From Anaerolineae bacterium (GTDB taxonomy: Bacteria > Chloroflexota > Anaerolineae > E26-bin7), in the NCBI GenBank assembly GCA_041862415.1, contig JBGVTF010000036.1, positions 1 through 61,342 of the forward strand: 61,342 nucleotides of DNA, given 5' to 3'. The notes beneath the pieces were generated by a model. That model searched no databases and was not told where the DNA came from. It saw only the letters and a program-made list of their open reading frames with translations. The translations under genes were made by a program, and so were the position numbers. The first letter of the stretch is position 1. Each line of letters starts with the position of its first letter. Below are positions 12,251-34,679 of this stretch, piece after piece.

Positions 12251-12348
12251 AATCCGGTGTGAATTTTCATACTTCATGGTGCCCCGCCGGGGCATGTGGA
12301 CTGCTTCGAGAACCCCCGTGTCATCTTACTTGCCATAAAGAGACAAAG

Positions 12349-15300: not shown

Positions 15301-17031
15301 ACGATGCAGATGGTCAAGAAAATGGGCGATCTGGGCGGCAGCAGCTTTCACAGCACCATTCCCGGTCTGGAGGGGCTTGTCCGCCTCGTGCCCGGCCTCG
15401 TCAGGGTTATCTCCGGTCAGCCCCTGCCAGCTTTCAACTATTGGGACCCTACCCGGGTCATCCCTTTCACCATCAACGAGTTCCCCTACTTCAGCTTCCT
15501 CTTCGCTGACCTGCACCCCCACATGATCGGTATCCCTTTCACCATTCTCTTCCTGGCCCTGGCCTATAACGTGGTGGCCGGGGGCAGGAGGACGGGGGCA
15601 GATGCCAGGGGGCAATGGGTGGTCACTTTTGAGGAGTTCCTCGGCTGGGCTGTCATTCCTCTATGCCTGGGTGCTCTGGCCGTCATCAACACCTGGGATT
15701 TCCCCACTTACCTGGGCATCATCGGCTGTGCTTTTCTCCTCCGCCAGTGGCAGAGGGGCCGCGTCAACCTTCTCCGGGTGGTCGGCTTTGCCACCCTGAT
15801 GGGTAGCCTGAGCCTGGTCCTCTATTGGCCATTTTTCCAGCACTACAATGCCCTGAACGTTGGGGTAGGCCTGGTCAAGGGACGGACAGACTTCTGGGCT
15901 TTCATTACTATCTGGGGCTTTTTCCTCTTCGTGCTCATCACTTTCCTGTTGACCGAGTTGCTGCGGCAGCGGTCCAGGTCAGGCATCCTGCGGTGCCTGC
16001 GGTTGGTGGCCAGGCGCTGGGAGACCCTGCCCCATTTGAGCGAGCTCTACAGAGTGTTGGCGCGCGAGCAAACTATGGGCTATCTTCTCGGCGCGTATGC
16101 CCTGGGCATTTTGCTGATTATGGTGGCCGGGCTGGCCTTGCTTCGCTACTGGGTATTGGTTTTGCTGGTTCCCCCTCTCGTCTTGGCTGCACTGCTGCTT
16201 TTGTACCGCGAAGCTTCCGCAGAAGAGGTGTTCATCTATTTTCTGATCTTTACTGGCTTTCTCGTCCTGGAGGGCTGCGAGTTGTTTTACCTGAAGGATT
16301 TCCTCCAGGGGGGTGACCACCGGCGCATGAACACCCTATTCAAGTTCTATATCCAGGTCTGGGTGCTTTTTGGGCTGGCTGCGGCGGTGGCTCTGCCCCG
16401 GCTGTGGACCAACCTGGGGCGTTGGCGCTCAAGGGGGCTGCGCTACATCTGGGTGGGCCTTTTCTTCGCTCTGCTCCTCTCTGTCTGTGTCTACCCTCTC
16501 CTGGGCACACCTCAGCGGGTGGCGGACCGTTTCGCTGGCGAGAGGCCGCCCATTGGCACCCTGGATGGTATGGCTTACATGACCGTCGGGTCCTATGCCT
16601 GGCCTGACGACAGCAACCGCATCGAGCTGAAGTACGACTATGAGGCCATCCAGTGGCTGCTGGCCAATGTCAAGGGCACCCCCGTCATCGCCGAGGCCGC
16701 CCTGCCCTATTACCGCGAAGGCGGGTCGCGAGTGGCATCCTACACCGGTCTGCCCAGCCTCCTGGGGGCTCAGCACGCTGGTGAGCAACGCTACAGTTGG
16801 CAGGTCGGCCGGCGAGACGGCGAGGTCAGGGATTTTTACACGACGGGTGACATCGGACGTGCTTTGGAGCTCATTCGCAATCTGGATGTTTCTTACGTCT
16901 ACGTCGGCAGGTTGGAGCGAACCACTTATGATCCCATTGGCCTGGCCAAGTTCGACCGGATGGTTGAGGAAGGCTATTTGACAGTGCCATATTCCAATGA
17001 AGAAGTGAAGATTTACAGAGTAGTTGGCTGA
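12349..17031 (+). CDS. giant polytopic membrane protein: an N-terminal GT-C (PMT_2/ArnT-like) glycosyltransferase module fused to a DUF2298 / Chlor_Arch_YYY module
   Basis: The ORF is open from 12259, so the start is uncertain; 12349 is the first ATG. The N-terminal part has [20 protein letters not shown]. The second half has [40 protein letters not shown], which carries the YYYxG signature. Confidence 0.8.
   Translation: [1560 protein letters not shown]
14167..14224 (+). repeat. tandem copies of the short dispersed element CCCTTCGAC-N3/4-GCTCAGGACAC, in frame within the CDS
   Basis: cccttcgacaa cccttcgacggggctcaggacac cgcccttcgacaagctcaggacac is translated as [20 protein letters not shown]. 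Confidence 0.7.
15208..15236 (+). repeat. heptanucleotide tandem repeat (GAGATTC x2, GGGATTC, GCTGATTC) inside the CDS
   Basis: gagattc gagattc gggattc gctgattc encodes [10 protein letters not shown]. Its reverse complement belongs to the GAATCNC family seen at 22484. Confidence 0.75.
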
Positions 17032-18187: not shown

Positions 18188-19348
18188 TTGGGGGTGTATG
18201 TGGTAAAAGATCAATACGATCCCGGCGATCTCAAAAAGCGATTGATGAATTTCGTTATGAGTGGACGTTTCAGGACCGAGTTCAGGCGGGCGGTGCGTGA
18301 GGAGTTCGGGGGTGATACTATCGTCGGTGATGAGCATGAGATGATCAATTTTATGGATTGGTTTGCTCTGGAGCGCCGCACTCGTGACGGTCGCACCCCT
18401 CTCGAGGTCTTTGTCGAAAGAGAACGGCGGAGGGGTATGCCTGAGAATGTAGCCCAGCAACTGTCGCGCTGGAGCAACGTTACTGAAGGGCTCTTTGAAA
18501 TGCGTAAGAAGGTTGACCCTGACACCATGCTGGCCTACGACCATCTGCGGCAGCGAGAACTGACCATCAAGTGCAACATCCCAGGCTTCTTGTCCAAGAA
18601 GGTCTCGCTTGGTTCTTATCTTATAGCTCGCATAGTTCCCTGGTATGATCACTATTACCTTTCAGGCGCTTCGGCTGTACTTCCACCGGAGTCAAAGGAG
18701 CAGATATTGGAAATAGCCAGAGACATGCAGCGAAAGCACCCTGCCCTGGCATACGCCAGTGCTACTGAGGAGGAACGAGAACAACTTGCGGCTGTGGAAG
18801 AGGAGATGTACCGCGCTTTTGTGGAATTCTTTGGCGATGACGAGGTCGTCTTTCCCACTGGTCGTGAGATGGCCAAGAGGCTTAAAGAGTTCACCCGCTA
18901 TCATATTTTTGAGCACGTGCAGGCCAGTGGCAAGACCATGGCTCAAGAGGCCAAGGAGCGCGGTCACGATGCCAAAATGCCCCAGCAAGCTCCCTATCCG
19001 CGTGAGTTGCTCAGGGCCAAGGACGTCGGGGTATTGTTGGATTCTGTTGAAGGGATGTTTTTCCTGCCCGAGTATGGCACCTTTCGCCGCATCTTTGCGG
19101 AACCTGACTTTCAGCAAGTCCCCGATTGGCGTGAGCTCATCTATGATTACCTCACAGAAGATAGCGTCCCGCCGTTACCCTTCAAACGCATGGTAGAACG
19201 CTATCCCGAAGGGGCGAGGCGCGTCTTCAAAGCTGCGCTGAAAAGGCGCAAGTTCAATCTCAGGCGGGATTTCCCCAAACTGATGCGGCGTTACAAGCGG
19301 AGTTGGTTGGAGAAGGAACCGGTACCTACAGTCATACCGTTTCGATAA
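18188..19348 (+). CDS. hypothetical protein (386 aa)
   Basis: A long ORF in the codirectional gene string. No motif was recognised, and the start codon (TTG at 18188 or downstream) is uncertain. Confidence 0.55.
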   Translation: MGVYVVKDQYDPGDLKKRLMNFVMSGRFRTEFRRAVREEFGGDTIVGDEHEMINFMDWFALERRTRDGRTPLEVFVERERRRGMPENVAQQLSRWSNVTEGLFEMRKKVDPDTMLAYDHLRQRELTIKCNIPGFLSKKVSLGSYLIARIVPWYDHYYLSGASAVLPPESKEQILEIARDMQRKHPALAYASATEEEREQLAAVEEEMYRAFVEFFGDDEVVFPTGREMAKRLKEFTRYHIFEHVQASGKTMAQEAKERGHDAKMPQQAPYPRELLRAKDVGVLLDSVEGMFFLPEYGTFRRIFAEPDFQQVPDWRELIYDYLTEDSVPPLPFKRMVERYPEGARRVFKAALKRRKFNLRRDFPKLMRRYKRSWLEKEPVPTVIPFR

Positions 19349-19413
19349 GTTTGCAGGCCGACGTCAACCGGAGCCAGACTGCTATTCTAACGATACTGAT
19401 TGGAGACGCGATA

Positions 19414-20760
19414 GTGTTTGTGCCTCACTGTTTCAAGATAGGTCGAGAGTGTCCTTTTGCAGATGAGATTGAAGAAGACCCCCGGCTGGTCTTCGTGTTA
19501 ATGCCCTTTGCATCAGAGTTCGATGAAGTCTACCAGCAGGGCATCAGGCCTACCTGGGAGGAGTTGGGCTTCCGGGTTCTGCGGGCTGACGAGGAGTTTC
19601 ACGTCCACGATATCATGTGCCGCGCCATCTGCCAGAACATTCAACGGGCTGGTTTCATCGTGGCCGACATGACTGGCCGCAACCCCAACGTTTTCTACGA
19701 ACTGGGTCTGGCTCACGCCTTTGGCAAACCGGTCATCCTCATCACCCAGCACAAGGACTATGTGCCCTTTGATTTGCAGGCTATTCTTTACATAAACTAT
19801 GGAATCGGCAGTGAGAATATCGCAGAGTTGAAGCGCGGGTTAAAGAGAATGGCCCAGGGTTTGTTGGCAATGGAGGCTGTGTCTCAACCGCCAAGCCAGA
19901 GGTTGGTAGACCTTGTCTCCAATAGAGAGGTCAGGAGGCTGCCGGAGGTCATTGTTTGGGAGAAGGACAGCAAGGAGATGGTCTTGATTCCGGCCGGTGA
20001 ATTTCTGATGGGCACCACTGAGGCCCGGGCTGAAGATTTGACCGGGCAAGTGGGACAGGATTTCTTTAGTCGGGAGACGCCGCAGCACAAGGTTTATCTG
20101 CCGGATTTCTACATTGACCGCTATCCGGTGACCAACGCCGAGTTCCAGCGATTTGTGGAGGCTACTGGTTACCGTACCCAGGCTGAGAAAAATGGGTATG
20201 GGCGGGTTTGGAGTGGCAGCAAATGGGAACAGGCCGAAGGGACAGATTGGCGTCACCCCCAGGGGCCGCACAGCAGCCTCGCAGAGAGGATGGACCACCC
20301 GGTGGTCCAGGTGAGCTGGAACGATGCCGTGGCCTACGCCCGCTGGGCTGGCAAACGGCTGCCGACCGAGCGCGAATGGGAGAAAGCAGCCCGGGGTAGT
20401 GATGGACGGGCCTGGCCCTGGGGCACCGAATGGGTTGAAGGCAAGTGCAACACCAGGGAAGCGGGAGTTGGAGACACAGCACCGGTGGGATTCTATTCTC
20501 CGATCAGCGATAGCCCCTATGGAGTGGTTGACGTGGCCGGTAACGTCTGGGAATGGACGGCCGATTGGTTTGCCGCCTATCCCGGTACTACGTACAAGTC
20601 CAATGATTTCGGGGAGAAATATCAGATGGTGCGGGGAGGCTCGTGGTTCCGCGACCATTTGTTCGCCCGTTGTGCCTGTCGCTTCTGGTACGTTCGCGGC
20701 GGCCGGGGCGGGGACATCGGCTTCCGTTGCGTGAAAAGTTCTCCCCTTCCAGGAGTCTGA
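19414..20760 (+). CDS. fusion of a TIR-like / nucleoside 2-deoxyribosyltransferase-like domain with a formylglycine-generating-enzyme (FGE/SUMF1) domain
   Basis: N-terminus: LVFVLMPFASEFDEVYQQGI...GFIVADMTGRNPNVFYELGLAHAFGKPVILI. C-terminus: MVLIPAGEFLMGT...DRYPVTNAEFQRFV...HPVVQVSWNDAVAYARWAGKRLPTEREWEKAARG...GNVWEWT...RGGSW. A GTG at 19414 follows the SD ggaga; the ORF is open from 19303. Confidence 0.75.
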   Translation: MFVPHCFKIGRECPFADEIEEDPRLVFVLMPFASEFDEVYQQGIRPTWEELGFRVLRADEEFHVHDIMCRAICQNIQRAGFIVADMTGRNPNVFYELGLAHAFGKPVILITQHKDYVPFDLQAILYINYGIGSENIAELKRGLKRMAQGLLAMEAVSQPPSQRLVDLVSNREVRRLPEVIVWEKDSKEMVLIPAGEFLMGTTEARAEDLTGQVGQDFFSRETPQHKVYLPDFYIDRYPVTNAEFQRFVEATGYRTQAEKNGYGRVWSGSKWEQAEGTDWRHPQGPHSSLAERMDHPVVQVSWNDAVAYARWAGKRLPTEREWEKAARGSDGRAWPWGTEWVEGKCNTREAGVGDTAPVGFYSPISDSPYGVVDVAGNVWEWTADWFAAYPGTTYKSNDFGEKYQMVRGGSWFRDHLFARCACRFWYVRGGRGGDIGFRCVKSSPLPGV

Positions 20761-20781: not shown

Positions 20782-23265
20782 GTGAATGAGGTCTTGGCTG
20801 TTTTCCGCTGGTGGCTGATCATCGAGATACTGGGTCTGATAGCCTTGCCGCTCGCTGTGCGGCTGTTCAGGCATCTGCCCGACCGGGGTTATGCCCTCGC
20901 CAAGCCTTTGGGGCTGCTCTTGGTCAGCTACGTGTTGTGGATCGGAGCCACCTTCGGCTTGTTGCACAACAACGTCGGAGGTATCGTTTTCTCGATCTTG
21001 GCGGTGGGGGCCTTCTCTGGATGGTTTTACGCCAGAGGGGACAAAGATGGCAACCTCCTTGCTCTTATGAGAGAAAGGAGATGGGTCATCGTCGCCAGCG
21101 AAGTGCTCTTCGCCCTGAGCTTTGGCTTGTGGGCCCTCTACCGGGCCTATAACCCGGAGATAGCAGGCACCGAGAAGCCCATGGAGTTTGGCTTCCTCAA
21201 TGCGATCCTGCGCAGCGAGACCTTTCCCCCTCATGATCCCTGGCTCTCCGGCTTTGCCATCAGCTACTACTATTTTGGCTATCTGATGATGGCCGTGCTC
21301 ACCAGACTGTCTGGCGTGCCGTCCAACATCGCTTTCAATTTGGCCATCGCCTTGCTGTTCGGCTGGACGATAACCGGGTCGTTCAGTCTGGTCCATAATC
21401 TGGTAAGGAGGTCTGAGGAGGACCCTTCTGTTCCTTCTGTACCCCTCAGCCCTATATTCCACGGCGTCCTGGGCGCAATACTGGTGGCCGTGATGGGCAA
21501 CCTGGAGGGATTTCTGGAGATCCTGCACGCCAAAGGAATCGGTTCGGCGGGCTTCTGGCGCTGGCTAGACCTGAAAGACCTGGGGCAAGCTCCGATCACT
21601 AACACCTGGCTGCCCACGCGCTATCTGTGGTGGTGGCGGGCTTCCCGCATCATCCACGACAGGGACCTGCTGGGCAATGATATGGAGGTCATTGACGAGT
21701 TTCCCTTCTTCAGTTTCATGCTGGGCGACATGCACCCCCACGTCTTGGCTTTGCCCTTTGTGTTTTTGGCCCTGGCGCTGGCCTTGAACTTGCTGCTTTC
21801 GCGGCGCAAGCTGACCTGGCCTGAGTTGAGTCTGACGGCCTTTTGTCTGGGGGCTTTGGGCTTTTTGAACACCTGGGATTTCCCCATCTATTTGTTCATA
21901 GCCGTCGCCGCTTATGCTGTCCAACGCTACTGGCATCACGGAGCCTTTGATGCCGAATGGATGAAGGACGCCGGATACACGTCCGTTCTGCTGGCAGTCC
22001 TGGGCTTTGCTTTCTATCTGCCTTTCTACATCGGCTTCCAGTCCCAGGCGGGAGGACTGTTGCCCACCCTTTTCACCATTACCAGGCTGAACCAGTACCT
22101 GGTTATCTTTGGCTTGTTCGTCTTTGCCCTTCTCGGTTTCCTCATCGCCCAGATTGCAGAGTTGCTCTCATTGCGGGATCAGGGTGGAGAGAGGGTCTTG
22201 AGTCCGCGGGTCTTGTTCCTCGATTGGCTGCACGTTCTTCTGTGGGCGGTGATCCTGCCGCCGCTGGTCATGTTCGTGGTCATCATGCCCATTGTCGTCA
22301 CCGAGAGGGGGCGGGCCTTTCTGCAGGGCGTCCTGGACAGCGAGCCCGTGCGCCAGGCGATTGGCCAGCAGACCATTGGCTCCCTTCTGGGAAAGAGCCT
22401 TGAGCTTCGTTTCAGCAACCCCTGGTTCTTCCTCTTCGCGGTTTCGCTGATAGCCCTGGTCGTCGTTTTGATTCTGTACAAGTCACGAATCACGGATCAC
22501 GGATCACGAATCACGGATCACGAATCACCTGATTTCTCTCCCAGCGTCCTCTTCGTCCTTCTGATGGCCTTCACTGCCCTGCTCTTGACCTTCAGTGTGG
22601 AGTTCGTCTATCTCAGAGACCTTTTCGGCACCCGCATGAATACCATCTTCAAGTTTTACTTTCAAGCCTGGGTGCTTCTGGCAGTCTCCAGTGCCTTCTG
22701 CGTCTACTACGTAGCTGGTCGAGGGAGGATGGGCTGGGCACGTTCTCTGTGGCTGACTGGCCTTGGAGCGTTGCTTGTGGCTGGCATGGTTTATCCTGTG
22801 GCGGCCGGTTACACCAAAGCCAGCAGCTTCAAGGTTGAGCCTACCCTTAATGGCACGGCATATATGGCCGATCACAACTCTGACGACCACGCGGCTATCC
22901 GGTGGCTCAACGAGAACGTGGAGGGAGCGCCGGTTATCCTGGAAGCCACGGGCGGTTCCTACACCCACTATGCCAGGGTTTCCTCTCAGACGGGGTTGCC
23001 TACGCTGTTAGGCTGGGATTTCCACGAGGTGCAGTGGCGGGGCACTGGCGAGGAGGGCAACAAGCGCAAGCCGGACATCGAGACGATCTATGGCAGTCTC
23101 GACGCGCAAGCGGCCTTGACGCTGATGGACAAATACGATATAAAGTATGTCTACGTGGGGTCTCTGGAGCAGAGCAGTTATCCTGCGGCGGCCCTCGACA
23201 AATTTGACTATATCATGGATGTGGTCTATCAGCAAGGGGAGGTGACGATTTATAGACGTCGTTAG
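20782..23265 (+). CDS. DUF2298 / Chlor_Arch_YYY family polytopic membrane protein
   Basis: 827 aa. EKPMEFGFLNAILRSETFPPHDPWLSGFAISYYYFGY is paralogous to the C-terminal half of the 12349-17031 product, and the C-terminal soluble tail is similar too (VGSLEQSSYP / [10 protein letters not shown]). Confidence 0.85.
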   Translation: MNEVLAVFRWWLIIEILGLIALPLAVRLFRHLPDRGYALAKPLGLLLVSYVLWIGATFGLLHNNVGGIVFSILAVGAFSGWFYARGDKDGNLLALMRERRWVIVASEVLFALSFGLWALYRAYNPEIAGTEKPMEFGFLNAILRSETFPPHDPWLSGFAISYYYFGYLMMAVLTRLSGVPSNIAFNLAIALLFGWTITGSFSLVHNLVRRSEEDPSVPSVPLSPIFHGVLGAILVAVMGNLEGFLEILHAKGIGSAGFWRWLDLKDLGQAPITNTWLPTRYLWWWRASRIIHDRDLLGNDMEVIDEFPFFSFMLGDMHPHVLALPFVFLALALALNLLLSRRKLTWPELSLTAFCLGALGFLNTWDFPIYLFIAVAAYAVQRYWHHGAFDAEWMKDAGYTSVLLAVLGFAFYLPFYIGFQSQAGGLLPTLFTITRLNQYLVIFGLFVFALLGFLIAQIAELLSLRDQGGERVLSPRVLFLDWLHVLLWAVILPPLVMFVVIMPIVVTERGRAFLQGVLDSEPVRQAIGQQTIGSLLGKSLELRFSNPWFFLFAVSLIALVVVLILYKSRITDHGSRITDHESPDFSPSVLFVLLMAFTALLLTFSVEFVYLRDLFGTRMNTIFKFYFQAWVLLAVSSAFCVYYVAGRGRMGWARSLWLTGLGALLVAGMVYPVAAGYTKASSFKVEPTLNGTAYMADHNSDDHAAIRWLNENVEGAPVILEATGGSYTHYARVSSQTGLPTLLGWDFHEVQWRGTGEEGNKRKPDIETIYGSLDAQAALTLMDKYDIKYVYVGSLEQSSYPAAALDKFDYIMDVVYQQGEVTIYRRR
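22484..22528 (+). repeat. heptanucleotide tandem repeat CACGRAT x6 inside the CDS
   Basis: cacgaat cacggat cacggat cacgaat cacggat cacgaat cac spans six full heptamers (42 nt) and preserves the frame. It encodes SRITDHGSRITDHES. Confidence 0.85.
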
Positions 23266-23467
23266 ACTTTGGTCAGTACCACCTGGGGGAAACCCGGCTT
23301 TACAATTTGCTTCCGCCAGACGACAGACTTCGGCGAGTTCAGTCGAGCCGTCCGGTGGCTTCCACAACGTTTCGGGGCGCTGGATTGTCATCCAGCGCGA
23401 GCAAAAGTGTAAAGGCATTAGGGGGCTAGTCACGTAGAAATAGACTGCTGCGAAAGGAGATATTTCC

Positions 23468-24214
23468 ATGAATGGGACTATACTGATAGGACGAGGGCGC
23501 CAAATGATCAAGATCCCTCGTAAGGAATGGGAAAAACATTTATCCACAGTTCCACAGCATAGTGAAACCAAACTCGGTTTTATGTCAGAGGAACATCACC
23601 TTGTACGCTATTTTGTTGTCAGAGAGCTCCCACGTACTGGGGAACCTATACAGCCAGAGTTCATTTCTCAGAAGTTAAAGTTGCCTCTCGCTCAGATAAA
23701 AGCCATCCTTGATGAGCTAGAGAAGAATCTATTCTTTCTGGTTCGAAACGAACAGGGGGCAGTGTCCTGGGCGTATCCTGTTACCGTTGACGATACGCCG
23801 CACCATTTAACTTTCAGTACTGGTGAACAGTTGTATGCAGCCTGAGCGGAGGATGCGATTGCAGCGCCCTTCGTGCAAGGGCGATTACGAAAAGAACATC
23901 TGTCAGTTGCAATAAGCACAGAATGTGCGCACTGTGCTCAGCCGATACACATCACGGTGGATAGCGAGTTGACGTATAGCGTCAATGAGGAGGGCGCTGA
24001 GCCCCTGGTCTTTGAACCTCACATAAACTGGGAGACATTTACCGAACCGAACATCATCCACGCATACTGACGCAATTCTGTATTCTTCTGGTCAGAAGAA
24101 CATGCAAGAGAATTTCGTGCCAAAGCGGATCATGTAGACGGTCTCTTCTTGACCTTGGAGCAAATTGCCTATTCAACGCGGATTGTTCAGGGTGCGCTTT
24201 TTGCGTTCAAATAG
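23468..24214 (+). CDS. MerB (alkylmercury/organomercurial lyase) family protein with two in-frame UGA codons (23843-23845 and 24068-24070); candidate selenoprotein
   Basis: A strong SD (aaaggag) lies 8 nt before the ATG at 23468. Three same-frame segments (23468-23842, 23846-24067 and 24071-24211) all retain MerB-like sequence. LYAA-[TGA]-AEDAIAAP aligns with LYAW-C96-ALDTLIFP, and HAY-[TGA]-RNSVFFWS aligns with SF-C159-CHVHFFAS, using MerB recalled from memory. Asp99 and Cys117 equivalents are present. Confidence 0.6.
23865..23883 (+). promoter_or_regulatory. SECIS-like hairpin 1 (CGCCCTT-cgtgc-AAGGGCG), 20 nt downstream of the first UGA
   Basis: A perfect 7-bp stem and a 5-nt loop containing GU. 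The loop begins 27 nt after the UGA. Confidence 0.4.
24083..24100 (+). promoter_or_regulatory. SECIS-like hairpin 2 (TTCTTCT-GGTC-AGAAGAA), 13 nt downstream of the second UGA
   Basis: A perfect 7-bp stem and a GGUC tetraloop. The loop G/U sit at positions 24/25 counted from the U of UGA, compared with G23/U24 in the E. coli fdhF SECIS as I recall it. Confidence 0.55.
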
Positions 24215-24578
24215 CTTGTTTGCCTGGGCTGAGCTCCATCGGGCGACTCTTACTCCAGTAAAAAGTCAGCGCTTTGCTGCTATAACGCTTGACATTTAAT
24301 GTGTTGCGTTATAGACTTCCTATATCAGAACCTTCCCGGAAGTGAAACTGTATGCTGCGACTGGTTAGTGGTCTGTCTTGCCGACTAACAACAACGCGAC
24401 GCTGCAGCCGAACGCTGAGCACTTCACTGGGGGGTGACGAGTGAAAATTAGATGAGTTACCCTGTAATACTCTTGGCCCTGAAGCATCTCTATTATTGAA
24501 AGTCCGCACGAGGAGACCGCCATCCACGACGAGTTTGCCCGGCGCTATCGTGAATATCTGCCTCGCATCCTCAACTTT

Positions 24579-25022
24579 ATGCGCCTGCGGGTGGACGATG
24601 AGGCCCTGGCTCAGGATCTGACCGCCGCTACTTTTGAGCAGGCCCTGGCCCACCTGGATCAACTCCGCTCGCCCGAGGCTTTTGGCGGCTGGCTGTTTCG
24701 TATCGCCCGCAACCAGGTGGCGCAGTATTACCGCCGACGCCGGGTGCACGTCCCGCTGGAAGCCGTGGCCGACCATCCGGATGACGCGCCATCGGTCGAA
24801 GCCCAGGTGGAGCGAAGCGAGGAACTGACTCGCCTGCTGGCGGCCATTCGCACCTTGCCGGAGCGTGAGCAGGAGATCATTGGCCTGAAATTTGTCGGCG
24901 GCCTGAATAACAAGCAGATCGGGCAAGCGATGGGGTTGCGAGCGGGCAACGTGGCGGTGATTCTTTACCGGGCGCTCCGCCGCCTGCGAGACCGGCTAGG
25001 AGAGGGGGAAAGGGATGCCTGA
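24579..25022 (+). CDS. ECF-type RNA polymerase sigma-70 family factor (the true start is probably upstream of the first ATG)
   Basis: Region 2 (DLTAATFEQAL...GWLFRIARNQVAQYYRRRR) and region 4 (LPEREQEIIGLKFVGGLNNKQIGQAMGLRAGNVAVILYRALRRLR) are present. The frame stays open back to 24483 and encodes sigma-like HDEFARRYREYLPRILNF without any ATG, GTG or TTG. Confidence 0.8.
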   Translation: MRLRVDDEALAQDLTAATFEQALAHLDQLRSPEAFGGWLFRIARNQVAQYYRRRRVHVPLEAVADHPDDAPSVEAQVERSEELTRLLAAIRTLPEREQEIIGLKFVGGLNNKQIGQAMGLRAGNVAVILYRALRRLRDRLGEGERDA

Positions 25023-25894
25023 TGGACGCGATGAGTGAACGCCAAGCGGCCCAACGGCTGTCGGGACGCATCGAGGAGATGCTGGGGATAACCAGGGACG
25101 AGGAAACAGCGGGAGACCTGCTGGACACGGCCCGGCAATTGGTTCGCCTGAGCGACCTGTTCGGTCGGCCGGATCCGACCTTCGAGCAGCAGTTGACGGC
25201 GCAGATCGAAGCCCGGCTGGCAGAACGACCACGCCGCCGGACCATCTGGCGTCCTCGCTTTGCCTGGCTCACAGCCGCGGTGTTGGTGCTCGTGCTGGCT
25301 GGCCTGCTCACTCCCCCAGGCCGGGCGGCCCTGGCCGAGTTCATGGCCATCTTTCGCCTGGACCAGGCCGAGGTGCACATCGCCGGGACGGTTCCCGTTG
25401 CCCAAGCTTACACCGCCACGGCCGAAATAACGCTTCCCGGCCTGCCCGAGGCGCAGGCGACCGTTGTGCCTCATACCTGCCAAGTGCCAGCCTACCTGCC
25501 CCAGGGCTACCAGTTGCACCGCATCAGCACCAGCCACTTTGACCAGTTCCCGGCGTGGGCGCAACCGCTGTTCATTGACGTGACCTACCGGCGAGAGACG
25601 AACGAGGCCATCTGGGAGCTCGCCTATCGTCAATATTTTATGTCGCTGGGTGGAGGCACCACCATTGGGAGCCTCACCTTCTCGTCAGAGGAGATCGAAT
25701 CAGCTCGTCGGGTGACCGTGAACAGCCATCCGGCGGTGCTCCTGACCGTACGACCAGCGAGTTCCGTCGGACAACCTGGGAGGGTCCTTCACCTGGTATG
25801 GGAACAGGACGGCGCGCTCTTTACCCTGACCACCACTGAGCTCTCGCCCGACGAACTTGTCCGCATCGCCGAATCTGTTGTGCCTTATCCTTAG
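25022..25894 (+). CDS. anti-sigma factor-like membrane protein with an extracytoplasmic DUF4367-like domain
   Basis: 290 aa. It is coupled to the sigma gene by a TGATG overlap. There is a single TM helix (FAWLTAAVLVLVLAGLL), and the C-terminus ...VWEQDGALFTLTTTELSPDELVRIAESV resembles DUF4367. Confidence 0.7.
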   Translation: MDAMSERQAAQRLSGRIEEMLGITRDEETAGDLLDTARQLVRLSDLFGRPDPTFEQQLTAQIEARLAERPRRRTIWRPRFAWLTAAVLVLVLAGLLTPPGRAALAEFMAIFRLDQAEVHIAGTVPVAQAYTATAEITLPGLPEAQATVVPHTCQVPAYLPQGYQLHRISTSHFDQFPAWAQPLFIDVTYRRETNEAIWELAYRQYFMSLGGGTTIGSLTFSSEEIESARRVTVNSHPAVLLTVRPASSVGQPGRVLHLVWEQDGALFTLTTTELSPDELVRIAESVVPYP

Positions 25895-26010
25895 GGTGCA
25901 TTTCAAATGGGTTGCAGGACAAGCCTGCCCTGAGCTCAGTCGAAGGGTTGGCATCTTGTCCCGGGGGCAACTTGCCAACTTGCCCTACGACTGATAAATG
26001 GAAGGAGCTT

Positions 26011-27822
26011 ATGGTAGCAGACAAAGGAGCGGAAAGAATAGGCGTCTCCGCCAGATTGACACCAGAACGTTCCACCGCGGCCCTGCCATGGCTCACGGTG
26101 GAGGTGGCTCTGTACGTTCTGATAGGAATGGTTGCCGCGGGCCTGCGCTTTTATGCTCTGGGGGCGCAGCCTTTGCGTGAAAGCGAGGCGACTCAGGCTC
26201 TGGCAGCCTGGCGATTCTCTCAGGGCAACTTGGAAGGTACGGCGGGCTATAGTCCCTTGCTTTTCCTGGGCAATGTCTTCGCCTTCGTCTTGCTGGGAGC
26301 CAGCAATGCCCTGGCTCGCCTGGTGCCGGCCCTCTTCGGCACGGCCCTGGCCGTCTTGCCCTATTTCCTGAGGCCTCGTCTGGGGCGGAGGGGAGCTTTG
26401 GTTGCTTCCATTCTCCTGGCCCTCTCGCCCTCGACCCTCTTCTTCTCGCGCTATCTGGGGGGACCGATTGTCGTCACCGCCTGTGTTTTGGCCGTGCTGG
26501 TCGGCTTCTTTGGCTACCTGGATAGCCGGCAGCCGAAATATGCTTATCTGATCGCTGCAGCTCTGGCCCTCTCTCTGAGCGCTGACCCCATGATCTACAC
26601 TTTCGTCCTCATCTTCGGCACCTTTCTGCTCCTTCTTGCCCTGATTGACAGACTGGCCAACGTGGACATGGGCTGGTCAGCGGTCCTGGCGGCCTGGCAG
26701 ACGGCGAGAGAAGAGACGGACCTGCTGAAAAAATCGGCCCTCGTTGTGGTCGCGGTCGTGGCGCTGGTCAGCACGGCTTTCCTGCTGAATTTCGCTGGCT
26801 TGCCGGCGGCTCTGGATTTCTTACCCACCTGGTTGGCCCAACTTGGGCCTCAGCCTGGTGATCAGCCATGGTACTACTATTTCCAGTTGTTGGTTCTTTA
26901 TGAGCCTCTCATTCTGATCTTGGGCCTGATCGGATTGGTCTATCATTATATCGGGCGGCGTGACCTCCTGACCACTTTTCTTCTCTATTGGACGGTGGCC
27001 GCTGCGGTCATCTATGCCCTGGCTGGACAGAAGGCACCGGGGAACGTTCTCCTCCTGGTGTTGCCCCTGGCGCTCTTGGCCAGCTTGCTGATAGGGCGTT
27101 TTTGGGATCAGTTGGCTCAGGCCGCTGCCTGGGGGGCAGAGGGTCTTTTCGTGGCCTTCTCTCTGCCTGTCGTGGTCTTCTTGGCCATCCAGTTGGCTGG
27201 CTACGCCTCCAGTGGCCAGACCGTCTATTTGTACCTGGCTCTCGTGGCCTTCCTCGTCCTGCCCACTCTGATAGCCCTTTGCTGGATGTGGTTGGGTCAG
27301 GGGCCAGCCTTGCGCTATGGTGAGATCATCTTGCTTTTGGTTTTGGCGATGCTCACAGTTAACCTCAGCGTGGGCCTGAACTATCACCGTGCCGCTGACC
27401 CCCGTGAGCCTATGGTGGCTGAGGCGACTTCGCCCGGTGTGGTAGACTTGGTGACGACTCTGGAACGAATCTCCAGCCATCAGGAAGGGGATCCTTACAC
27501 TATAGCTACTACCGTTGAGGAGGCTACAGGGCCCGTTCTGGCCTGGCATCTGCGGAATTTCAGGAATACGAGCTTTGTGGAGCAGTTATCGCCTTCCATT
27601 GAGACACCTGTTGTCGTCACCCTGGCCAGGGAAGAAGAACCAACATTGGGCGGTTCTTACGTGGGGCAGAGTTTTGCTTCGCAAGCGACGTGGAATCCCC
27701 TGGGGCTCACCCGGACCGAGCGTGTGCGCTGGCTCCTCTATCGTGAAGCGCCGACCCCGGTCGAGTCCCGTGACGTTGTGCTTTGGGTGAAACAGCAGGA
27801 GCAAATAGCCAATAACGAATAG
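26011..27822 (+). CDS. TIGR03663-like polytopic membrane protein (GT-C-related) with degenerate catalytic motifs
   Basis: It is paralogous to the N-terminal half of the next gene, but RESEA replaces HDESL and GYSPLLF replaces MHGPFLF. The ORF is open from a TTG at 25912; 26011 is the first ATG and has a very close SD, so the start is uncertain. Confidence 0.7.
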   Translation: MVADKGAERIGVSARLTPERSTAALPWLTVEVALYVLIGMVAAGLRFYALGAQPLRESEATQALAAWRFSQGNLEGTAGYSPLLFLGNVFAFVLLGASNALARLVPALFGTALAVLPYFLRPRLGRRGALVASILLALSPSTLFFSRYLGGPIVVTACVLAVLVGFFGYLDSRQPKYAYLIAAALALSLSADPMIYTFVLIFGTFLLLLALIDRLANVDMGWSAVLAAWQTAREETDLLKKSALVVVAVVALVSTAFLLNFAGLPAALDFLPTWLAQLGPQPGDQPWYYYFQLLVLYEPLILILGLIGLVYHYIGRRDLLTTFLLYWTVAAAVIYALAGQKAPGNVLLLVLPLALLASLLIGRFWDQLAQAAAWGAEGLFVAFSLPVVVFLAIQLAGYASSGQTVYLYLALVAFLVLPTLIALCWMWLGQGPALRYGEIILLLVLAMLTVNLSVGLNYHRAADPREPMVAEATSPGVVDLVTTLERISSHQEGDPYTIATTVEEATGPVLAWHLRNFRNTSFVEQLSPSIETPVVVTLAREEEPTLGGSYVGQSFASQATWNPLGLTRTERVRWLLYREAPTPVESRDVVLWVKQQEQIANNE

Positions 27823-27841: not shown

Positions 27842-30800
27842 ATGCAGAAAATCACTGTTGAAAGAAAGAATGTCCTCGACATACCTTTACTGAGCCTGTT
27901 CAAGCTGGATTGGGAGAAGGCCATTTATCTGCTCATTCTGGTTGTGGCCATCGTGACGCGCTTCTGGGACCTGGGGGCGCGAGGCATGAGCCACGATGAG
28001 AGCCTGCATGCTCTCTATGCCTGGAAGCTCTACGCCGGTCAGGGCTACCAGCACAATCCGATGATGCACGGGCCCTTCCTCTTCCATTTCAATGCCCTGA
28101 TCTATTTCCTCTTTGGGGACAACGACTATACGGCTCGCATCTCCACGGCCCTCTTCGGGGTGATCCTGGTCATGTTGCCCTACTTTATGCGCCGCTGGCT
28201 GGGTCGCATTGGGGCCCTGCTCACCTCGGTTATGCTGCTCATCTCACCGTCTATACTCTATTACTCCCGCTACATCCGGCATGATGCTCTCATCGTTGTC
28301 TGGGTGCTGATTCTGCTCATCGCCTTCTTCCGTTATCTGGAAGAGAGGGCCGATCGTTGGCTGTACCTGGGGGTAGCAGCCACTGCTTTCATGTTTTGTG
28401 TCAAAGAGGTGGCTTTTATCTACGGAGGCATCCTCGGCACTTTTCTCGTTCTGCTGTTTCTGATCCAATGGCTGCTCCAACGGGACCGCCGTCCAACTGA
28501 ACTGCCTTCCTTTGACCTGGCTGTTGTGTTGGGTACTTTGTGCCTGCCGCTTCTCTCCCCCTTACTCATGCAACTGATGAACATCCTGTGGGGACATCTG
28601 TTGGGGCAGGTTTTCATTGACATGAACATCTTTACCGACCCCCAGCGTATTCCTTTGACCTTACAGAGCAACCCTGTGGAGGTGGCGCGTATTTTCCTGA
28701 TTTTCTTTGCCACCGTCGTTATCTCTGTGGTCATCGGGGTGTTTTGGGACCGACGGCGCTGGCCCCTTCTGGCCGGTATCTTCTACTTCATTTTTACCCT
28801 TTTCTATACCACCTTTTTCACCAACGGGGCAGGCTTTATCACCGGGGAACTGGGCTCCATGGGCTATTGGCTGGCCCAACAGGGTGTGAAACGGGGTGGG
28901 CAACCCTGGTTCTACTATGCCGTTCTGGTGCCCCTCTACGAGTTCTTGCCCCTTTTCTTCAGTGTAGTGGGCATCGTCTACTACTTTGTGCGAGGCATCC
29001 CCAAACGAGAGGGAGACTCTCAGACGTTTGTGCCCTTCTTGATGTATTGGGTGGCTTTCAGCATCGTTGGCTACAGCGTAGCCGGTGAGAAGATGCCCTG
29101 GCTCACCGTGCACCTTGCTTTGCCTATGATTTTCCTAACCGGTCGTTTCGTCAACGACGTTGTGGGGGAGACCGACTGGGGGCAGGTCTGGCGGCAGGGA
29201 GGGGCTATACTGGCCCTGTTCGTTCTGTTGCTCCTTGCGGCTCTCGTCTCTCTGGCCAGGAGCAGACCCTTTCAGGGCCAGGAGCTTTCTCAACTGAGTG
29301 CTACCATGCAATGGCTGGCTGCCCTGTTGGTAGCCGCCGTGCTGGTCTACGGCCTGTGGCGCTATGGGTTGCGCCTCGGCTGGGGACGTGTCCTTCGGGT
29401 GGTCTTTGTTACGCTTTTCGTCGTTCTCTCCCTTCTCACGGTGCGTTTCGCCTGGATGCTGACTTACATCAATTATGACTACGCCACCGAGTATCTGGTC
29501 TACGCCCACGCCACTCCCGACGTGAAACGGGTCTTGGCCGAGATCGAGGAAATCTCGCGGCGGACGGTGGGCGACAAGGAGATCAAGGTTGCCTACGACG
29601 ACGACTCTACCTGGCCTCTGGAGTGGTATTTCCGCGAATATAGAAATCGCTCTTTCTATGGGGCCAATCCGAGCAAAGAAGCCCTCGATGCGCCCCTGGT
29701 CATCGTGGGCAACAAGAACGAGAGCAAGGTCAAACCCTTCCTCGGCAACCGCTACCATCACTTCAGCTACCGTCTCATCTGGTGGCCCATTGAGAACTAT
29801 AAGAATGCGACCCTGAAGAAGATCATGGCTGACCTGCGTGACCCCCAGAAGATGGCGGCTTTCTGGGACGTTGTCTTCTATCGAAAGTACGAGACCCCCA
29901 CCACCGCCTGGCCCTATGTGCACCGCTTCTCTTTCTATGTGCGCAAGGACGTGGCCAGCCAGTTGTGGGACTATGGCGTCGGTCCTGCGGCTCCGGTTGA
30001 GATGCCTATGGATCCCTACGCCAAAGGACAGCGCAAAGTAGCCAGTATTCTGTCCTGGGGCAGCCAGGGTACGGCTCCAGGGCAGTTCTCCGATCCCAGG
30101 GGGTTGGCCGTGGACAGCGAGGGCAGGGTCTACGTGGCCGACAGCAACAACCACCGCATCCAGGTCTTTGATTCCAGTGGCCAGTTCATAACCGGGTGGG
30201 GCAGCCCGGGAGTTGGGCCGGGCCAGTTCCAAGAGCCATGGGGCGTGGCCGTGGACCAGGACGGCAACGTTTACGTGGCTGACACCTGGAACCATCGCTT
30301 CCAGAAGTTCGACTCGGAGGGCAGATTCTTGCTTCAGTGGGGCACTTTTGGCAACACTCAGGGGGCAACCGTTGGGCAGGAGAAGGTTTTCTATGGGCCG
30401 CGGGACATTGCCATTGACGCTGCTGGCGACCTCTACGTGACCGATACAGGCAACAAGCGGGTGATGAAATTCAGTTCCATGGGAGAGTTCCTTGGCCAGT
30501 GGGGTGGCCTTGGCCTTCAGAGCGGCCAGTTTCACGAGCCAGTAGGCATTGACATTGATGCCGATGGGAATATTTACGTGGCTGATACCTGGAACAGGCG
30601 CGTCCAGAAATTCGATAGCGACTTTGTCTTTCTGACCCAGTGGCCCGTCCACGGTTGGGAGAGCGAGTCGGTGATCAACAAGCCGTATCTGGCCGTTGAT
30701 GGAGATGGTCACGTCTATGTCACTGACCCCGAAGGCTACCGTGTGCTCGAATTCGATGCAGGGGGTACTTTCCTGGCCACCTTCGGCGAGTTTGGGGTAG

Positions 30801-30913
30801 GGGCTGGCGAGTTCAATCTGCCCATTGGCATTGCCGTTGACGAGTCGGGCAACGTCTACGTCGCCGACTCGGCCAACAACCGGGTGATAAAGTTCGGGCC
30901 GATAGGCGAATAG
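27842..30913 (+). CDS. TIGR03663-family GT-C-like membrane protein fused to a C-terminal NHL-repeat beta-propeller
   Basis: 1023 aa. RFWDLGARGMSHDESLHALYAW...MMHGPFLFH carries the family's DE and HGP signatures. The C-terminus has about six repeats of the type GQFxxPxGxAxDxxGxxYVADxxNxRxQKFD. Confidence 0.85.
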   Translation: MQKITVERKNVLDIPLLSLFKLDWEKAIYLLILVVAIVTRFWDLGARGMSHDESLHALYAWKLYAGQGYQHNPMMHGPFLFHFNALIYFLFGDNDYTARISTALFGVILVMLPYFMRRWLGRIGALLTSVMLLISPSILYYSRYIRHDALIVVWVLILLIAFFRYLEERADRWLYLGVAATAFMFCVKEVAFIYGGILGTFLVLLFLIQWLLQRDRRPTELPSFDLAVVLGTLCLPLLSPLLMQLMNILWGHLLGQVFIDMNIFTDPQRIPLTLQSNPVEVARIFLIFFATVVISVVIGVFWDRRRWPLLAGIFYFIFTLFYTTFFTNGAGFITGELGSMGYWLAQQGVKRGGQPWFYYAVLVPLYEFLPLFFSVVGIVYYFVRGIPKREGDSQTFVPFLMYWVAFSIVGYSVAGEKMPWLTVHLALPMIFLTGRFVNDVVGETDWGQVWRQGGAILALFVLLLLAALVSLARSRPFQGQELSQLSATMQWLAALLVAAVLVYGLWRYGLRLGWGRVLRVVFVTLFVVLSLLTVRFAWMLTYINYDYATEYLVYAHATPDVKRVLAEIEEISRRTVGDKEIKVAYDDDSTWPLEWYFREYRNRSFYGANPSKEALDAPLVIVGNKNESKVKPFLGNRYHHFSYRLIWWPIENYKNATLKKIMADLRDPQKMAAFWDVVFYRKYETPTTAWPYVHRFSFYVRKDVASQLWDYGVGPAAPVEMPMDPYAKGQRKVASILSWGSQGTAPGQFSDPRGLAVDSEGRVYVADSNNHRIQVFDSSGQFITGWGSPGVGPGQFQEPWGVAVDQDGNVYVADTWNHRFQKFDSEGRFLLQWGTFGNTQGATVGQEKVFYGPRDIAIDAAGDLYVTDTGNKRVMKFSSMGEFLGQWGGLGLQSGQFHEPVGIDIDADGNIYVADTWNRRVQKFDSDFVFLTQWPVHGWESESVINKPYLAVDGDGHVYVTDPEGYRVLEFDAGGTFLATFGEFGVGAGEFNLPIGIAVDESGNVYVADSANNRVIKFGPIGE

Positions 30914-30926
30914 TCTAAAAGGCGAT

Positions 30927-33900
30927 ATGCAAGAGCGACGGAAACTCACCAATCTAGTTCTAGCTCTGGGGGCATTGGCCCTGGGTGCTATCGCCCAGGG
31001 CCGTTTCGTTGCCAGGGAGCCTGGAGACGCCCTCATTCTCTATCTGGTGGCTGTCATAGTGTTCATCTATGCCGGCCGTCCCTGGGAGAAGGTTGAGGCC
31101 GTGGACACATCTGGCGGGGGTCACGATGCTGCGGCAGGAGCGGAGCCGCCGACGGAGCCCGTAGCGTCCCCCTGGCGGCTGCGCGGGGGCATCGCCCTTC
31201 TCCTCCTGGCAATGCTGTGCAGTCTCTTTGCCTTGCGTTCTTTCAGACAGGTTAGCGGCTCGTCTGAGGCCTGGTACCTCTATCTGACCAGCCTGGTCTT
31301 CTTGGTCGGTTCTTTCTATGTCTGGGCAGGAAGCCGTACTCAGAGACCTTGGGTTATCACCTCTCCCTATTGGAAGGAAGCGGCCCTCCTAGCTATGATC
31401 CTTCTCATTGGGGCCTTCATGCGTCTCTACAAGTTCACTGCTCTTCCCTTTGGCACCTGGTACGATGAGGCCGACAACGGCCTGTGGGCCCTGAAGGTCC
31501 TCAATGATCCTTCCTACCGCCCTATCTACATCGAGTCCACCAACCTGCCGGCCCACTTTGTCTTTCTCATTGCTCTCTCTTTCAAGCTGTTGGGGGCAAC
31601 CACTACCCTGGCTATCCGCGCTGTGACCGTGGTCTTTGGCCTGGCGACGGTGATGGTTGCCTATCTCCTGGGCCGTGAGTTTTTCAACCGGAAGCTGGCC
31701 CTCGTGCTGGCCTTCTTCCTGGCTGTCTCCCGCTGGGATGTCAATTTCAGCCGGATTGGTTTGCATGGTGTGACCACCCCCTTCTTCGAGTTGGCTGTCA
31801 TCTATTTCCTGCTCAAGGGGCTGCGACGTAAAGCCGTCCAGGACTTTGTCTGGGGTGGCCTGAGCCTGGGATTGGGTCTCTGTTTCTATGCCCCTTACCG
31901 TCTTTTTCCTGGGGTGATCGCCCTTTTTCTGCTCTATCAAGTGGTCACGCGCCGGGGCTTTTTGCGAGAGCACTATCGCCATCTGCTCGTCTTCAGTCTG
32001 GCGGCCCTTTTGGCTGTGGCTCCAGTGTTGCAGTTCGCCTGTCAGCACACCGAAAAGTTCCTGGCTCGTACACGGAGGACCTCTATTTTCAGCCAGGAAG
32101 TCAACCAACCTGGCTGGAAAGCGGTGGATGACAATCTCGGCAAACACCTCTTGATGTTTAATTACCGAGGCGATCCCAATGGTAGACATAACTTGCCTGG
32201 CGAGCCCATGCTCGATTCCACAACATCTGTCCTCTTTCTCATCAGTCTGGGCTACAGTCTCTACCATTTGCGGAGACGCCAGTGCTTTCTGTTGATCATC
32301 TGGTTTGCAGTGATGCTCTCTGGGGGTGTTTTCTCCCTTGACTTCGAAGCGCCTCAATCGTTGCGGGCCATCGGGACCCTGCCGGTGGCCTACGTGTTAG
32401 CCTGTGTTGTCCTGCAACAACTGGAGGGGGCATTCACTCGGGGTTGGGGGGCTCGGGGAGGCAGGTATTTCAGTGGGGCCTTGGTTTTCCTCCTGGCCTG
32501 GATTGGATACGCTAATTTTCACACCTATTTCTACCGCCAGGCGCGGGACTTTGCTGTCTGGAATGCCTTCTCTACGCCCGAGACCCTAACCGCCCGGGCC
32601 ATGAAAGCCGCGGCTGGTCACTACGACTTTTACGTAACCTCCCTCTATTATCAGCATCCCACTGTGCGTTTCATTGTCCCTAATGTAGTCAGCTACAAGA
32701 GGTGGGATACTTCGGACAACTTGCCCATTCGCGAACCGGGTGAGAGGCCGTTGTTCATCCTCCTTGATGCTGAAAAACGCTCGGACTTTTTGGAGGCTCA
32801 AAGCTACTATCCCGACGCCGATTTCGAGGAACTAGCCCCCCCCTTTGGCGGCCCAACGGTGCTCTACACCATCCGTCTGACAGGCGATGATCTCAGGGGC
32901 GTCCAGGGCCTGATGGCTTACTATTATCGGAGCGAGGAGTGGGAGGGGGAAGCAGCTCTAGAGCACCAGGAAGAGCCTGTTCTGAGCAAAGTCGAAGGGA
33001 GCCTGGACTTGAACTGGCCGGGTGAGGCTCCCTGGGCCGGACCATTCAGCGTTGAGTGGCGGGGTGTGCTCTATGCCCCTCAATATGGGCCGTATCTTCT
33101 GAGGCTGGAAGCGCCGGCCGAAGCGCAGTTGTACCTGGACGAGAGTCTGCTCCTGGATGGCAGTGGGGTGATGGCTCAGGATATCACCCTGGCCGAAGGC
33201 AATCACGCCTTGCGCGTCCGAGCCGTGGGGGCCGAAGGGCGGTTGAGGCTCCAGTGGCGAGCACCCGGTGATGAGGAGACCCTCGTTCCCACCTGGGCTC
33301 TCTACAGGCCGCCGGTGACCAACAACGGTCTTTTGGGAACCTATTATCAGAACCTCGACTGGGCTGGACCTCCAGCCTTGGCCCGGATTGACCCCATACT
33401 GTCCATGTATTTTCACATTACCCCTCTGCCTCGGCCCTACACTGTAGAATGGCAGGGGGTGATTTCCATCCCCTACGCGGGTGTCTACGCCTTTGGCCTG
33501 GAATCCATTGACGACTCTCACCTGTACATAGATGGCCGTTTAGTGGTTGAGGCCACGGAGCCCAACGTTTACAGTGAGGGGTCCGTCGAACTTATGGAAG
33601 GCTTCCATGACATCCGCCTGCGTTATACCGACCGTAGTGGTTACTCTCACATTAACCTGTACTGGACACCGCCTGGCCAGGGCCGTCAGATTGTGCCTTC
33701 GCAGAACCTCTATCCGCCTCAGGGCAGCTATGCCCAGGCTCCCCCGCCTTCGCCACCTCCCGTAGCCTCGGTTGAGTTGGGTGAACTGGCCCTCGATTTT
33801 GTCTCGGCCTGGGGCACCCAGGGGACCGGGCCGGGTGAGTTCAACGAGCCCCGTGACATCGCTGTAGACGCAAAGGGCCGCCTCTACGTGGCCGACACGG

Positions 33901-34622: not shown

Positions 34623-34679
34623 GGTGCTTCCGAGATGGGAATCGTTCGTGCAGGCCTGACCTGCATATAGGAGGTCGTC

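Follow-up and report, generated by a model that had tools for sequence, protein, structure and literature searches.

A distant MerB-fold gene with conserved in-frame UGA codons at both catalytic cysteine positions, predicted to be read as selenocysteine

Among enzymes, MerB is, to our knowledge, the only known class able to break carbon-mercury bonds, which it does by means of two cysteine thiols. Here, we describe a MerB-like gene from an Anaerolineae bacterium in which TGA codons occupy the positions of both thiols. The gene lies on contig JBGVTF010000036.1 of assembly GCA_041862415.1, the whole 61,342-nt stretch of which we refer to as the window. An original prediction, made from the letters of the window alone, proposed that the locus encodes an organomercurial lyase with two selenocysteine (Sec) residues. 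Our analysis leads us to the view, to which we attach a probability of about 0.85, that positions 23468-24214 hold one intact gene for a 248-residue protein of the MerB fold in which both UGAs (codons 126 and 201) are decoded as selenocysteine. The features on which the argument draws are listed here, where SECIS denotes a selenocysteine insertion sequence and the UGA-loop gap is the distance from the UGA to the apical loop.

23454..23459, + strand: Shine-Dalgarno AAGGAG, read from the sequence, 8 nt before the ATG
23468..24214, + strand: MerB-like gene; 248 codons, two of them in-frame TGAs that are read through, then TAG
23843..23845, + strand: TGA at codon 126, at the place of MerB Cys96; predicted Sec
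23852..23854, + strand: codon of Asp129, the counterpart of Asp99, the proton donor of MerB
23865..23883, + strand: hairpin 1, predicted SECIS for codon 126; CGCCCTT-cgtgc-AAGGGCG, 7-bp stem, UGA-loop gap 26 nt
23924..23935, + strand: Cys153-x-x-Cys156 pair (CAHC); Cys153 aligns with MerB Cys117
24068..24070, + strand: TGA at codon 201, at the place of MerB Cys159 (the Sec position in the selenoprotein SaoL); predicted Sec
24083..24100, + strand: hairpin 2, predicted SECIS for codon 201; TTCTTCT-ggtc-AGAAGAA, 7-bp stem, UGA-loop gap 19 nt

Reading frame, conservation and fold

The gene runs in a single frame from the ATG at 23468 to the TAG at 24212-24214, and the only internal stops are the TGAs at 23843-23845 and 24068-24070. 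The open reading frame (ORF) listing of the window cuts it into 23468-23845 and 23873-24070; as the original prediction held, these two ORFs and a further 47-codon stretch share one frame and are split by the TGAs alone. Elsewhere, again in agreement with that prediction, TGA behaves as an ordinary stop, terminating 11 of the 34 long ORFs of the window with other stops soon after each, and genome-wide reassignment of TGA was ruled out on these grounds. When taken with the normal gene lengths obtained under genetic code 11 on a 680-kb contig that bears one of the homologues (L003), the TGA-terminated ORFs indicate that the standard genetic code is in use.

Relatives of the gene are numerous. 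A search of 5.8 billion proteins found 226, an exhaustive profile search of 1.84 billion representatives gave 924 clusters when E ≤ 1e-3 was allowed, of which 433 had E ≤ 1e-10 and the highest-ranking mostly stop at residue 125, and 366 relatives were found among species-representative genomes (one genome per GTDB species). The homologue census used here comprises the best 80 of these 366, which are 54-79% identical to the window protein; codon and hairpin counts refer to 84 sequences, and the segment analysis of selection to 73 homologues. Most of the best 80 belong to Anaerolineae and other Chloroflexota, and the remainder to Blastocatellia and other Acidobacteriota, Desulfobacterales, Clostridia, Ktedonobacteraceae, Dehalococcoidia, and further groups. 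The habitats of the relatives are mostly soil and sediment, and uncultured groundwater lineages are also represented. The gene also occurs in complete or near-complete genomes, among them CP070639.1, OZ252150.1, and JABTUW010000002.1.

TGA stands at exactly both columns in all 80 genome loci, as it also does in L001, and the scattered stops and frameshifts that the original prediction had named as the mark of a pseudogene are absent: no frameshift occurs, and the only other in-frame stop among the 80 is one extra TGA in L017. Site 1 (codon 126) is TGA in 82 of the 84 sequences and site 2 (codon 201) in 84/84, and 11 of the 12 metagenome loci that cover site 1 carry TGA at the sites covered. 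The homologues share 0.59 of residues with the window protein in the segment ahead of TGA1, 0.61 in the middle segment, and 0.70 in the one that follows TGA2, and in each segment the third codon positions hold most of the differences (0.53-0.63 versus 0.19-0.30 at positions 1 and 2). These identities, together with the third-position bias, mean that the whole frame is translated and under selection in many lineages, which excludes a pseudogene; all three segments are under purifying selection.

The databases hold the family in truncated or altered form. Exactly at residue 125 end 136 of the 265 retrieved proteins, and exactly at residue 200 end 25 proteins that have Cys at site 1; the NCBI entries are truncated "hypothetical proteins" (e.g., P0077 at 199 aa and P0109 at 136 aa). 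Forty-five "full-length" database proteins (e.g., P0001-P0009) carry Trp at both sites. The DNA of one of them (L001:59-805) shows TGA where the database protein has Trp, and we therefore attribute the tryptophans of these 45 proteins to JGI gene calls on short contigs that gave TGA its code 4 meaning; true Trp at both sites was ruled out on the same evidence. We note that two double-TGA copies, L009 and L054, come from one metagenome-assembled genome (CAVWDI01, MFD03804.bin.2.42), so that some genomes carry paralogues.

Read through with X at both TGAs, the product matches the Pfam MerB family PF03243 at 40.8 bits (cut-off 27; E = 2.6e-10), which supports the MerB homology claimed at the outset. 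An alignment to PDB 1s6l, made with C substituted at both TGAs, pairs codon 126 with Cys96, Asp129 with Asp99, Cys153 with Cys117, and codon 201 with Cys159. A profile of 20 natural family members, whose TGA columns are mostly "W" (miscalled TGA) and hence carry no bias toward Cys, places the same two columns on Cys96 and Cys159 of MerB and on the corresponding cysteines of MerB2 (5c17). Both alignments, the second being of the kind proposed as a check along with the original prediction, thus land the TGAs on the catalytic cysteine columns as that prediction had it, with the Asp99 equivalent at +3 and the motif STECAHCAQP on the Cys117 region. The Asp129 codon is GAT or GAC in 83 of the 84 sequences, and Cys153 and Cys156 (CxHC) are kept in nearly all Sec/Sec members; the MerB Cys117 that aligns with Cys153 is non-catalytic, and Cys156 is without a MerB counterpart.

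A structural model was made of P0014, a natural full-length homologue that is 55% identical to the window protein and has Ser at site 1 and Cys at site 2. The AlphaFold2 model (pLDDT 93.7, pTM 0.90) has MerB and MerB2 as its sole significant matches in the PDB (E ~1e-10, TM up to 0.83, 220-230 aligned columns at 14-18% identity); the next-best matches are MarR-type winged helices with E > 0.06. By its Pfam match and by this model of a homologue, the window product belongs, as a remote member, to the MerB fold. The "organomercurial lyase" of the original prediction stands as to fold and active site and is putative as a label of activity. The NCBIfam models of true MerB, NF009710 and NF033555 (EC 4.99.1.2), score 39.5 against a cut-off of 193 and 32.3 against a cut-off of 200, and at scores so far under the cut-offs the name reflects fold and active site and no established activity.

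Candidate SECIS hairpins and sense-codon variants

A perfect 7-bp hairpin had been reported after each TGA, and both are present with the sequences and coordinates listed above. Hairpin 2 had further been likened to the SECIS of Escherichia coli fdhF. The fdhF element, which we confirmed at 100% identity in 5,419 of 5,426 E. coli genomes, indeed has the same GGUC loop at a spacing that differs by 1 nt; counted from the U of the UGA, the loop occupies nt 22-25 in fdhF and nt 23-26 here.

The constraint on the two hairpins is visible at the level of RNA. Where a residue is shared by 80% or more of the sequences, its codon entropy lies near the maximum along the gene, so synonymous sites are saturated outside both hairpins. 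The entropy falls to 0-0.38 bits at residues 134-138 (CCC TTC GTG CAA GGG, hairpin 1) and to 0-0.57 bits at residues 206-211 (TTC TTC TGG TCA GAA GAA, hairpin 2), where Ser, despite its six codons, is written TCA in 74 of 75 sequences. Pairing in hairpin 1 holds in 93.9% of cells, compared with 32-60% when the 3′ arm is slid; three pairs are changed on both sides (e.g., GUCCUU/AAGGAC and CCCCCUU/AAGGGGG), and the covariation score is matched by 0/500 shuffles. The loop of hairpin 2 is GGUC in 83 of the 84 sequences.

An alternative fold, in which a UGA-proximal GCGGAGG pairs with CCUUCGU, is preferred by the minimum free energy (MFE) of the single sequence. We rejected it: its score is reached by 105 of 500 shuffles, and two of its pairs are mismatched in 39/84 sequences. 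Among the retrieved loci, hairpin 2 departs from GGUC only in L091 (L091:1501-2121), where the loop is GCUC and Trp208 becomes Cys, and in L002, where it is UGUC and site 1 is TGG.

The published bSECIS model specifies a loop of 3-9 nt, a stem of 4-16 bp, a G within the first two loop positions, a distance of 16-37 nt from the UGA, and an MFE ≤ -7.5 kcal/mol (PMC13188914, Fig. 2 legend). Both hairpins lie within its bounds for loop size, stem length, loop G, and spacing. The energy of hairpin 1 averages -9.4 kcal/mol, with 69 of 82 sequences passing -7.5; for hairpin 2 the values are mixed, the window's own 41-nt stretch reaching -8.0 and the 7-bp core staying at -5.6. For the window sequence taken by itself, the hairpins are not thermodynamically exceptional (z of -0.4 to -2.0), and Rfam gave no family match at the gathering score or at E ≤ 10; the case for SECIS elements rests on the comparison of homologues.

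Relatives with sense codons at the same columns, which had been suggested as a further check, do exist. Cys at site 1 is combined with TGA at site 2 in L003 (the 680-kb contig), L089, and 25 proteins, and Ser at site 1 with Cys at site 2 in P0010, P0014, and P0123. The commonest sense replacement at site 1 is Cys (27), not Trp. Remoter relatives have Gly, Glu, or Leu at the columns of both sites, and forms with no Cys exist. P0042, the Cys form that L089 encodes, has 80-81% identity to L090 and L091, both with TGA at site 1, a closeness which makes the Cys forms look like recent offshoots of Sec forms. The Ser/Cys form L084 no longer has hairpin 1 (the stretch reads AAYVGGQ), and its hairpin 2 codons now read TTT TTC TGG TCG GAG GAT; to judge from these sequences, the elements decay where the replacement is older. 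The FFWSEE motif occurs in 45 of 48 forms with Sec at site 2 and in 1 of 8 with Cys there, a contrast that is supportive and not decisive because the non-Sec samples are small and more divergent overall.

Single-base exchanges between TGA and TGG were also seen. L017 (L017:3001-3741) has a third in-frame TGA at codon 188, which is Trp188 (TGG) in all other members, and TGG replaces TGA at site 1 in L002 (L002:1876-1878) and probably in P0046. The exchanges in L017 and L002 may reflect errors of sequencing, alleles without activity, or near-cognate decoding.

Selenocysteine decoding, activity and the alternatives

Taken with the placement of both TGAs on metal-binding cysteine columns, the constraint on the hairpins leads us to infer strongly that Sec is inserted at both UGAs. 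Each UGA would be served by a separate bacterial SECIS hairpin within the frame, whose apical loop lies 26 nt (codon 126) or 19 nt (codon 201) downstream; SelB-GTP-Sec-tRNASec would bind the hairpin and deliver Sec once the UGA enters the A site, and the two insertions, 75 codons apart, would be independent. In the folded protein, the two selenolates would bind the metal and Asp129 would protonate the leaving carbon. With predicted selenols at the Cys96 and Cys159 places and Asp129 at the Asp99 place, MerB-type protonolysis of a carbon-metal(loid) bond is the most likely activity, although the substrate need not be an organomercurial. Neither a mer operon nor the locus of SaoL (SAO) nor a conserved neighbour accompanies the gene, so its function is read from fold and active site alone.

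Several points weigh against this reading. Genes for selA, selB, selD, and tRNA-Sec were not found in the 61-kb window or the retrieved flanks: the window has no tRNA gene, Pfam assigned no SelA, SelB, or SelD among its 29 proteins, no tRNA-Sec lies in the flanks of 60 loci, and tblastn with an E. coli SelD sequence gave no match across 579 kb of loci. The covariation that the original prediction proposed to look for is seen as compensatory changes in hairpin 1, whereas hairpin 2 is essentially invariant and displays synonymous constraint with no covariation. The 7-bp core of hairpin 2, at -5.6 kcal/mol, is weaker than the -7.5 of the bSECIS model, and with 45 nt of context that value is reached in only 53/84 sequences. 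Hairpin 1 is still present in two forms with Cys (L003, L089) and in one with Trp (L002), so that its presence is not strictly tied to TGA; in L003 and L089 it would have been retained because the conversion from Sec to Cys was recent. No Cys/Cys member of the subfamily was found among the retrieved relatives, and no mer operon (merR, merT, merP, merA) was seen around the gene in the window or the 80 loci. The chemistry raises a further doubt. Metal-selenolate bonds are stronger than metal-thiolate bonds, so release of Hg(II) would be hard, and the very stable Hg-diselenolate product makes turnover as a mercury lyase chemically questionable.

If a MerB-like gene had been killed by two nonsense mutations, leaving at most a 125-residue fragment as its product, gene callers would be expected to fragment the locus as they do (136 of the 265 database proteins are 125 aa long), and no Sec machinery need appear in the window. 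We give this account practically no chance, since the same two TGA codons recur in 80/80 species at 54-79% identity with no frameshifts, and the segment after TGA2 is the most conserved (0.70) and has a third-position bias, a pattern that independent decay cannot give. The UGAs might also be read through with no Sec, by near-cognate or suppressor decoding (Trp, Cys, Arg) or by local reassignment, with the hairpins as mere stimulators; the rare TGA/TGG exchanges (site 1 of L002 and probably P0046, Trp188 of L017) speak for such decoding. However, both UGAs fall on metal-binding cysteines of MerB, Cys (27 at site 1) and not Trp is the commonest sense replacement, TGA is an ordinary stop in the window, and gene lengths are normal on the L003 contig. 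The G-containing apical loops and their spacing are, moreover, as in bacterial SECIS elements, including the GGUC of fdhF, and Sec use is known in the host lineages: SelB and Sec-containing formate dehydrogenases are encoded in single-cell genomes of Anaerolineales, SelB also in Anaerolinea thermophila (PMC4959059), and Dehalococcoidia and Desulfobacterota rank among the most selenoprotein-rich bacteria (PMC13326102). We consider read-through of this kind improbable.

Harder to set aside is a protein that contains both Sec residues and is no lyase, its MerB fold reused for a stoichiometric metal(loid) binder or chaperone, or for redox cycling via a diselenide or a selenenyl-sulfide with the CxxC pair. 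The score of 39.5 against the NCBIfam MerB cut-off of 193, the lack of mer or SAO gene context, the extra conserved Cys153-x-x-Cys156 pair, and the existence of Ser/Cys and no-Cys relatives would all suit such a role, and general chemistry leads one to expect that very strong metal-selenolate bonds slow product release. Against it, the catalytic triad implied by the alignment is kept, with Asp129 in 83/84 sequences, and a pure binder would not need Asp129; we hold a non-lyase role to be a substantial, though the less likely, alternative. An alternative substrate, a single-turnover or chaperone role, and a hand-off to Cys153-x-x-Cys156 are possibilities for the difficulty of metal release, and it is speculation that this pair takes over the tightly bound metal or resolves a diselenide.

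Within the double-Sec lyase reading that we prefer, a more far-reaching proposal can be offered tentatively, at odds that we would put below even. The gene would belong to an uncatalogued, widespread family that uses a diselenol and Asp on the MerB scaffold for carbon-metal(loid) chemistry beyond that of dithiol MerB, on a substrate other than organomercury, and in which Sec/Sec is ancestral and the Cys and Ser forms are recent derivatives. Candidate substrates under this proposal would be, for example, organo-arsenic, -antimony, -tin, -lead, or -tellurium compounds, with soil and sediment Chloroflexota and Acidobacteriota as hosts.

Genomic context and relation to known systems

In the window, the gene has a DUF2298 membrane protein and ORFs of no assigned family on its flanks, and an FGE-sulfatase is among its neighbours. 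The downstream ORFs at 24309-24926 (-) and 25022-27822 (+) (205, 290, and 636 aa) matched no Pfam family at E ≤ 1e-5. Across the 80 loci no conserved neighbour was found; the largest clusters are overlapping frames of the gene itself, and YfiH-type Cu-oxidase_4 and VWA neighbours occur in at most 8 loci. The nine-gene SAO neighbourhood was found neither at the window locus nor at the 80 loci. A plasmid search returned only 27%-identical MerB/MerBA on four plasmids, and a phage search returned no match.

Other parts of the window are described here for completeness. Positions 12259-17031, 20782-23265, and 27842-37511 encode very large predicted membrane proteins with PMT_2 glycosyltransferase-like, DUF2298, NHL-repeat, and PA14 domains, and a DUF362 Fe-S protein and the FGE-sulfatase-domain protein adjoin this membrane-protein cluster. 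The FGE-sulfatase-domain ORF (19303-20760) ends at a TGA at 20758, and its frame stays open into the DUF2298 ORF (20782-23265). This TGA lies beyond the end of the Pfam domain, so it is probably a normal stop and the continuity of frame due to chance.

If the double-Sec reading is true, natural selenols at both positions would give organometallic biochemistry an active site of a new kind, which raises the question of whether a diselenol speeds carbon-metal protonolysis, shifts metal specificity, or traps the metal. Members are plentiful in uncultured lineages of soil, sediment, and groundwater, above all Anaerolineae and Blastocatellia. Because the family appears in databases as a 125-aa or 200-aa "hypothetical protein" or with false Trp, selenoproteome counts of these phyla are too low, as are, through the same annotation gap, counts of MerB-like genes in mercury-cycling surveys. 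The gene would also provide a clean natural case of two independent in-frame SECIS elements within one short bacterial mRNA.

Relative to MerB (R831b; PDB 1s6l, 3f0o, 3f0p) and MerB2 (5c17), the window family shares the fold (TM 0.76-0.83) and the residues Cys96, Asp99, and Cys159, which correspond to U126, D129, and U201. It differs in its low identity (14-18%), in an N-terminal extension of ~35 residues, and in predicted selenols in place of thiols; it is also without Cys160, a mer operon, or a plasmid location, and it scores under the NCBIfam MerB cut-offs. Hairpin 2 resembles the fdhF SECIS as an in-frame hairpin just downstream of the UGA with a GGUC apical loop, but its stem is unrelated, AU-rich, and has no evident bulged U, and unlike fdhF the window gene has a second, dissimilar SECIS candidate (loop CGUGC, 26-nt spacing) for its first UGA.

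The closest precedent is SaoL (NF040728), a selenoprotein resembling MerB that the SAO locus encodes in anaerobes such as Clostridioides difficile (Haft & Gwadz, bioRxiv 10.1101/2022.07.06.499078; listed in PMC13188914). The original prediction knew of no characterised selenocysteine MerB; in SaoL, a protein with one Sec at the Cys159 position had in fact already been described, so that the novelty lies in the second Sec and in a distinct family and not in a first Sec-containing MerB. SaoL and the window family have in common the MerB fold, Sec at the MerB Cys159 position, the Cys96 and Asp99 equivalents, and database entries truncated at TGA. In SaoL, however, the only Sec forms part of a CU dipeptide and the Cys96 place is still Cys, whereas the window family has Sec predicted at both places in the setting AY-U-RN; the window protein reads HAY-U-RNS, with no adjacent Cys and thus no CU dipeptide. 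SaoL also belongs to a conserved nine-gene locus of strict anaerobes, mainly Firmicutes, whereas the window family stands alone in mainly Chloroflexota and Acidobacteriota. The SaoL model scores 43.3 bits against a cut-off of 140, and with score, CU motif, and neighbourhood all at variance, we conclude that the window family is not SaoL.

The SaoL preprint mentions neither Chloroflexota nor a second Sec in the lyase (bioRxiv 10.1101/2022.07.06.499078), and the 2022 and 2026 inventories list SaoL, with one Sec, as the single MerB-like family (PMC9312934, PMC13188914). NCBIfam release 20 has no model for the window family, which is absent from the 2026 inventory; an earlier listing in catalogue supplements or in a 2025 paper by Haft & Tolstoy (mSystems) is possible. 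Set beside the dithiol MerB enzymes, single-Sec SaoL, and fdhF, what is new are the conserved, predicted diselenol active site, the two in-frame SECIS elements that would serve it, and a large unannotated family in major soil phyla.

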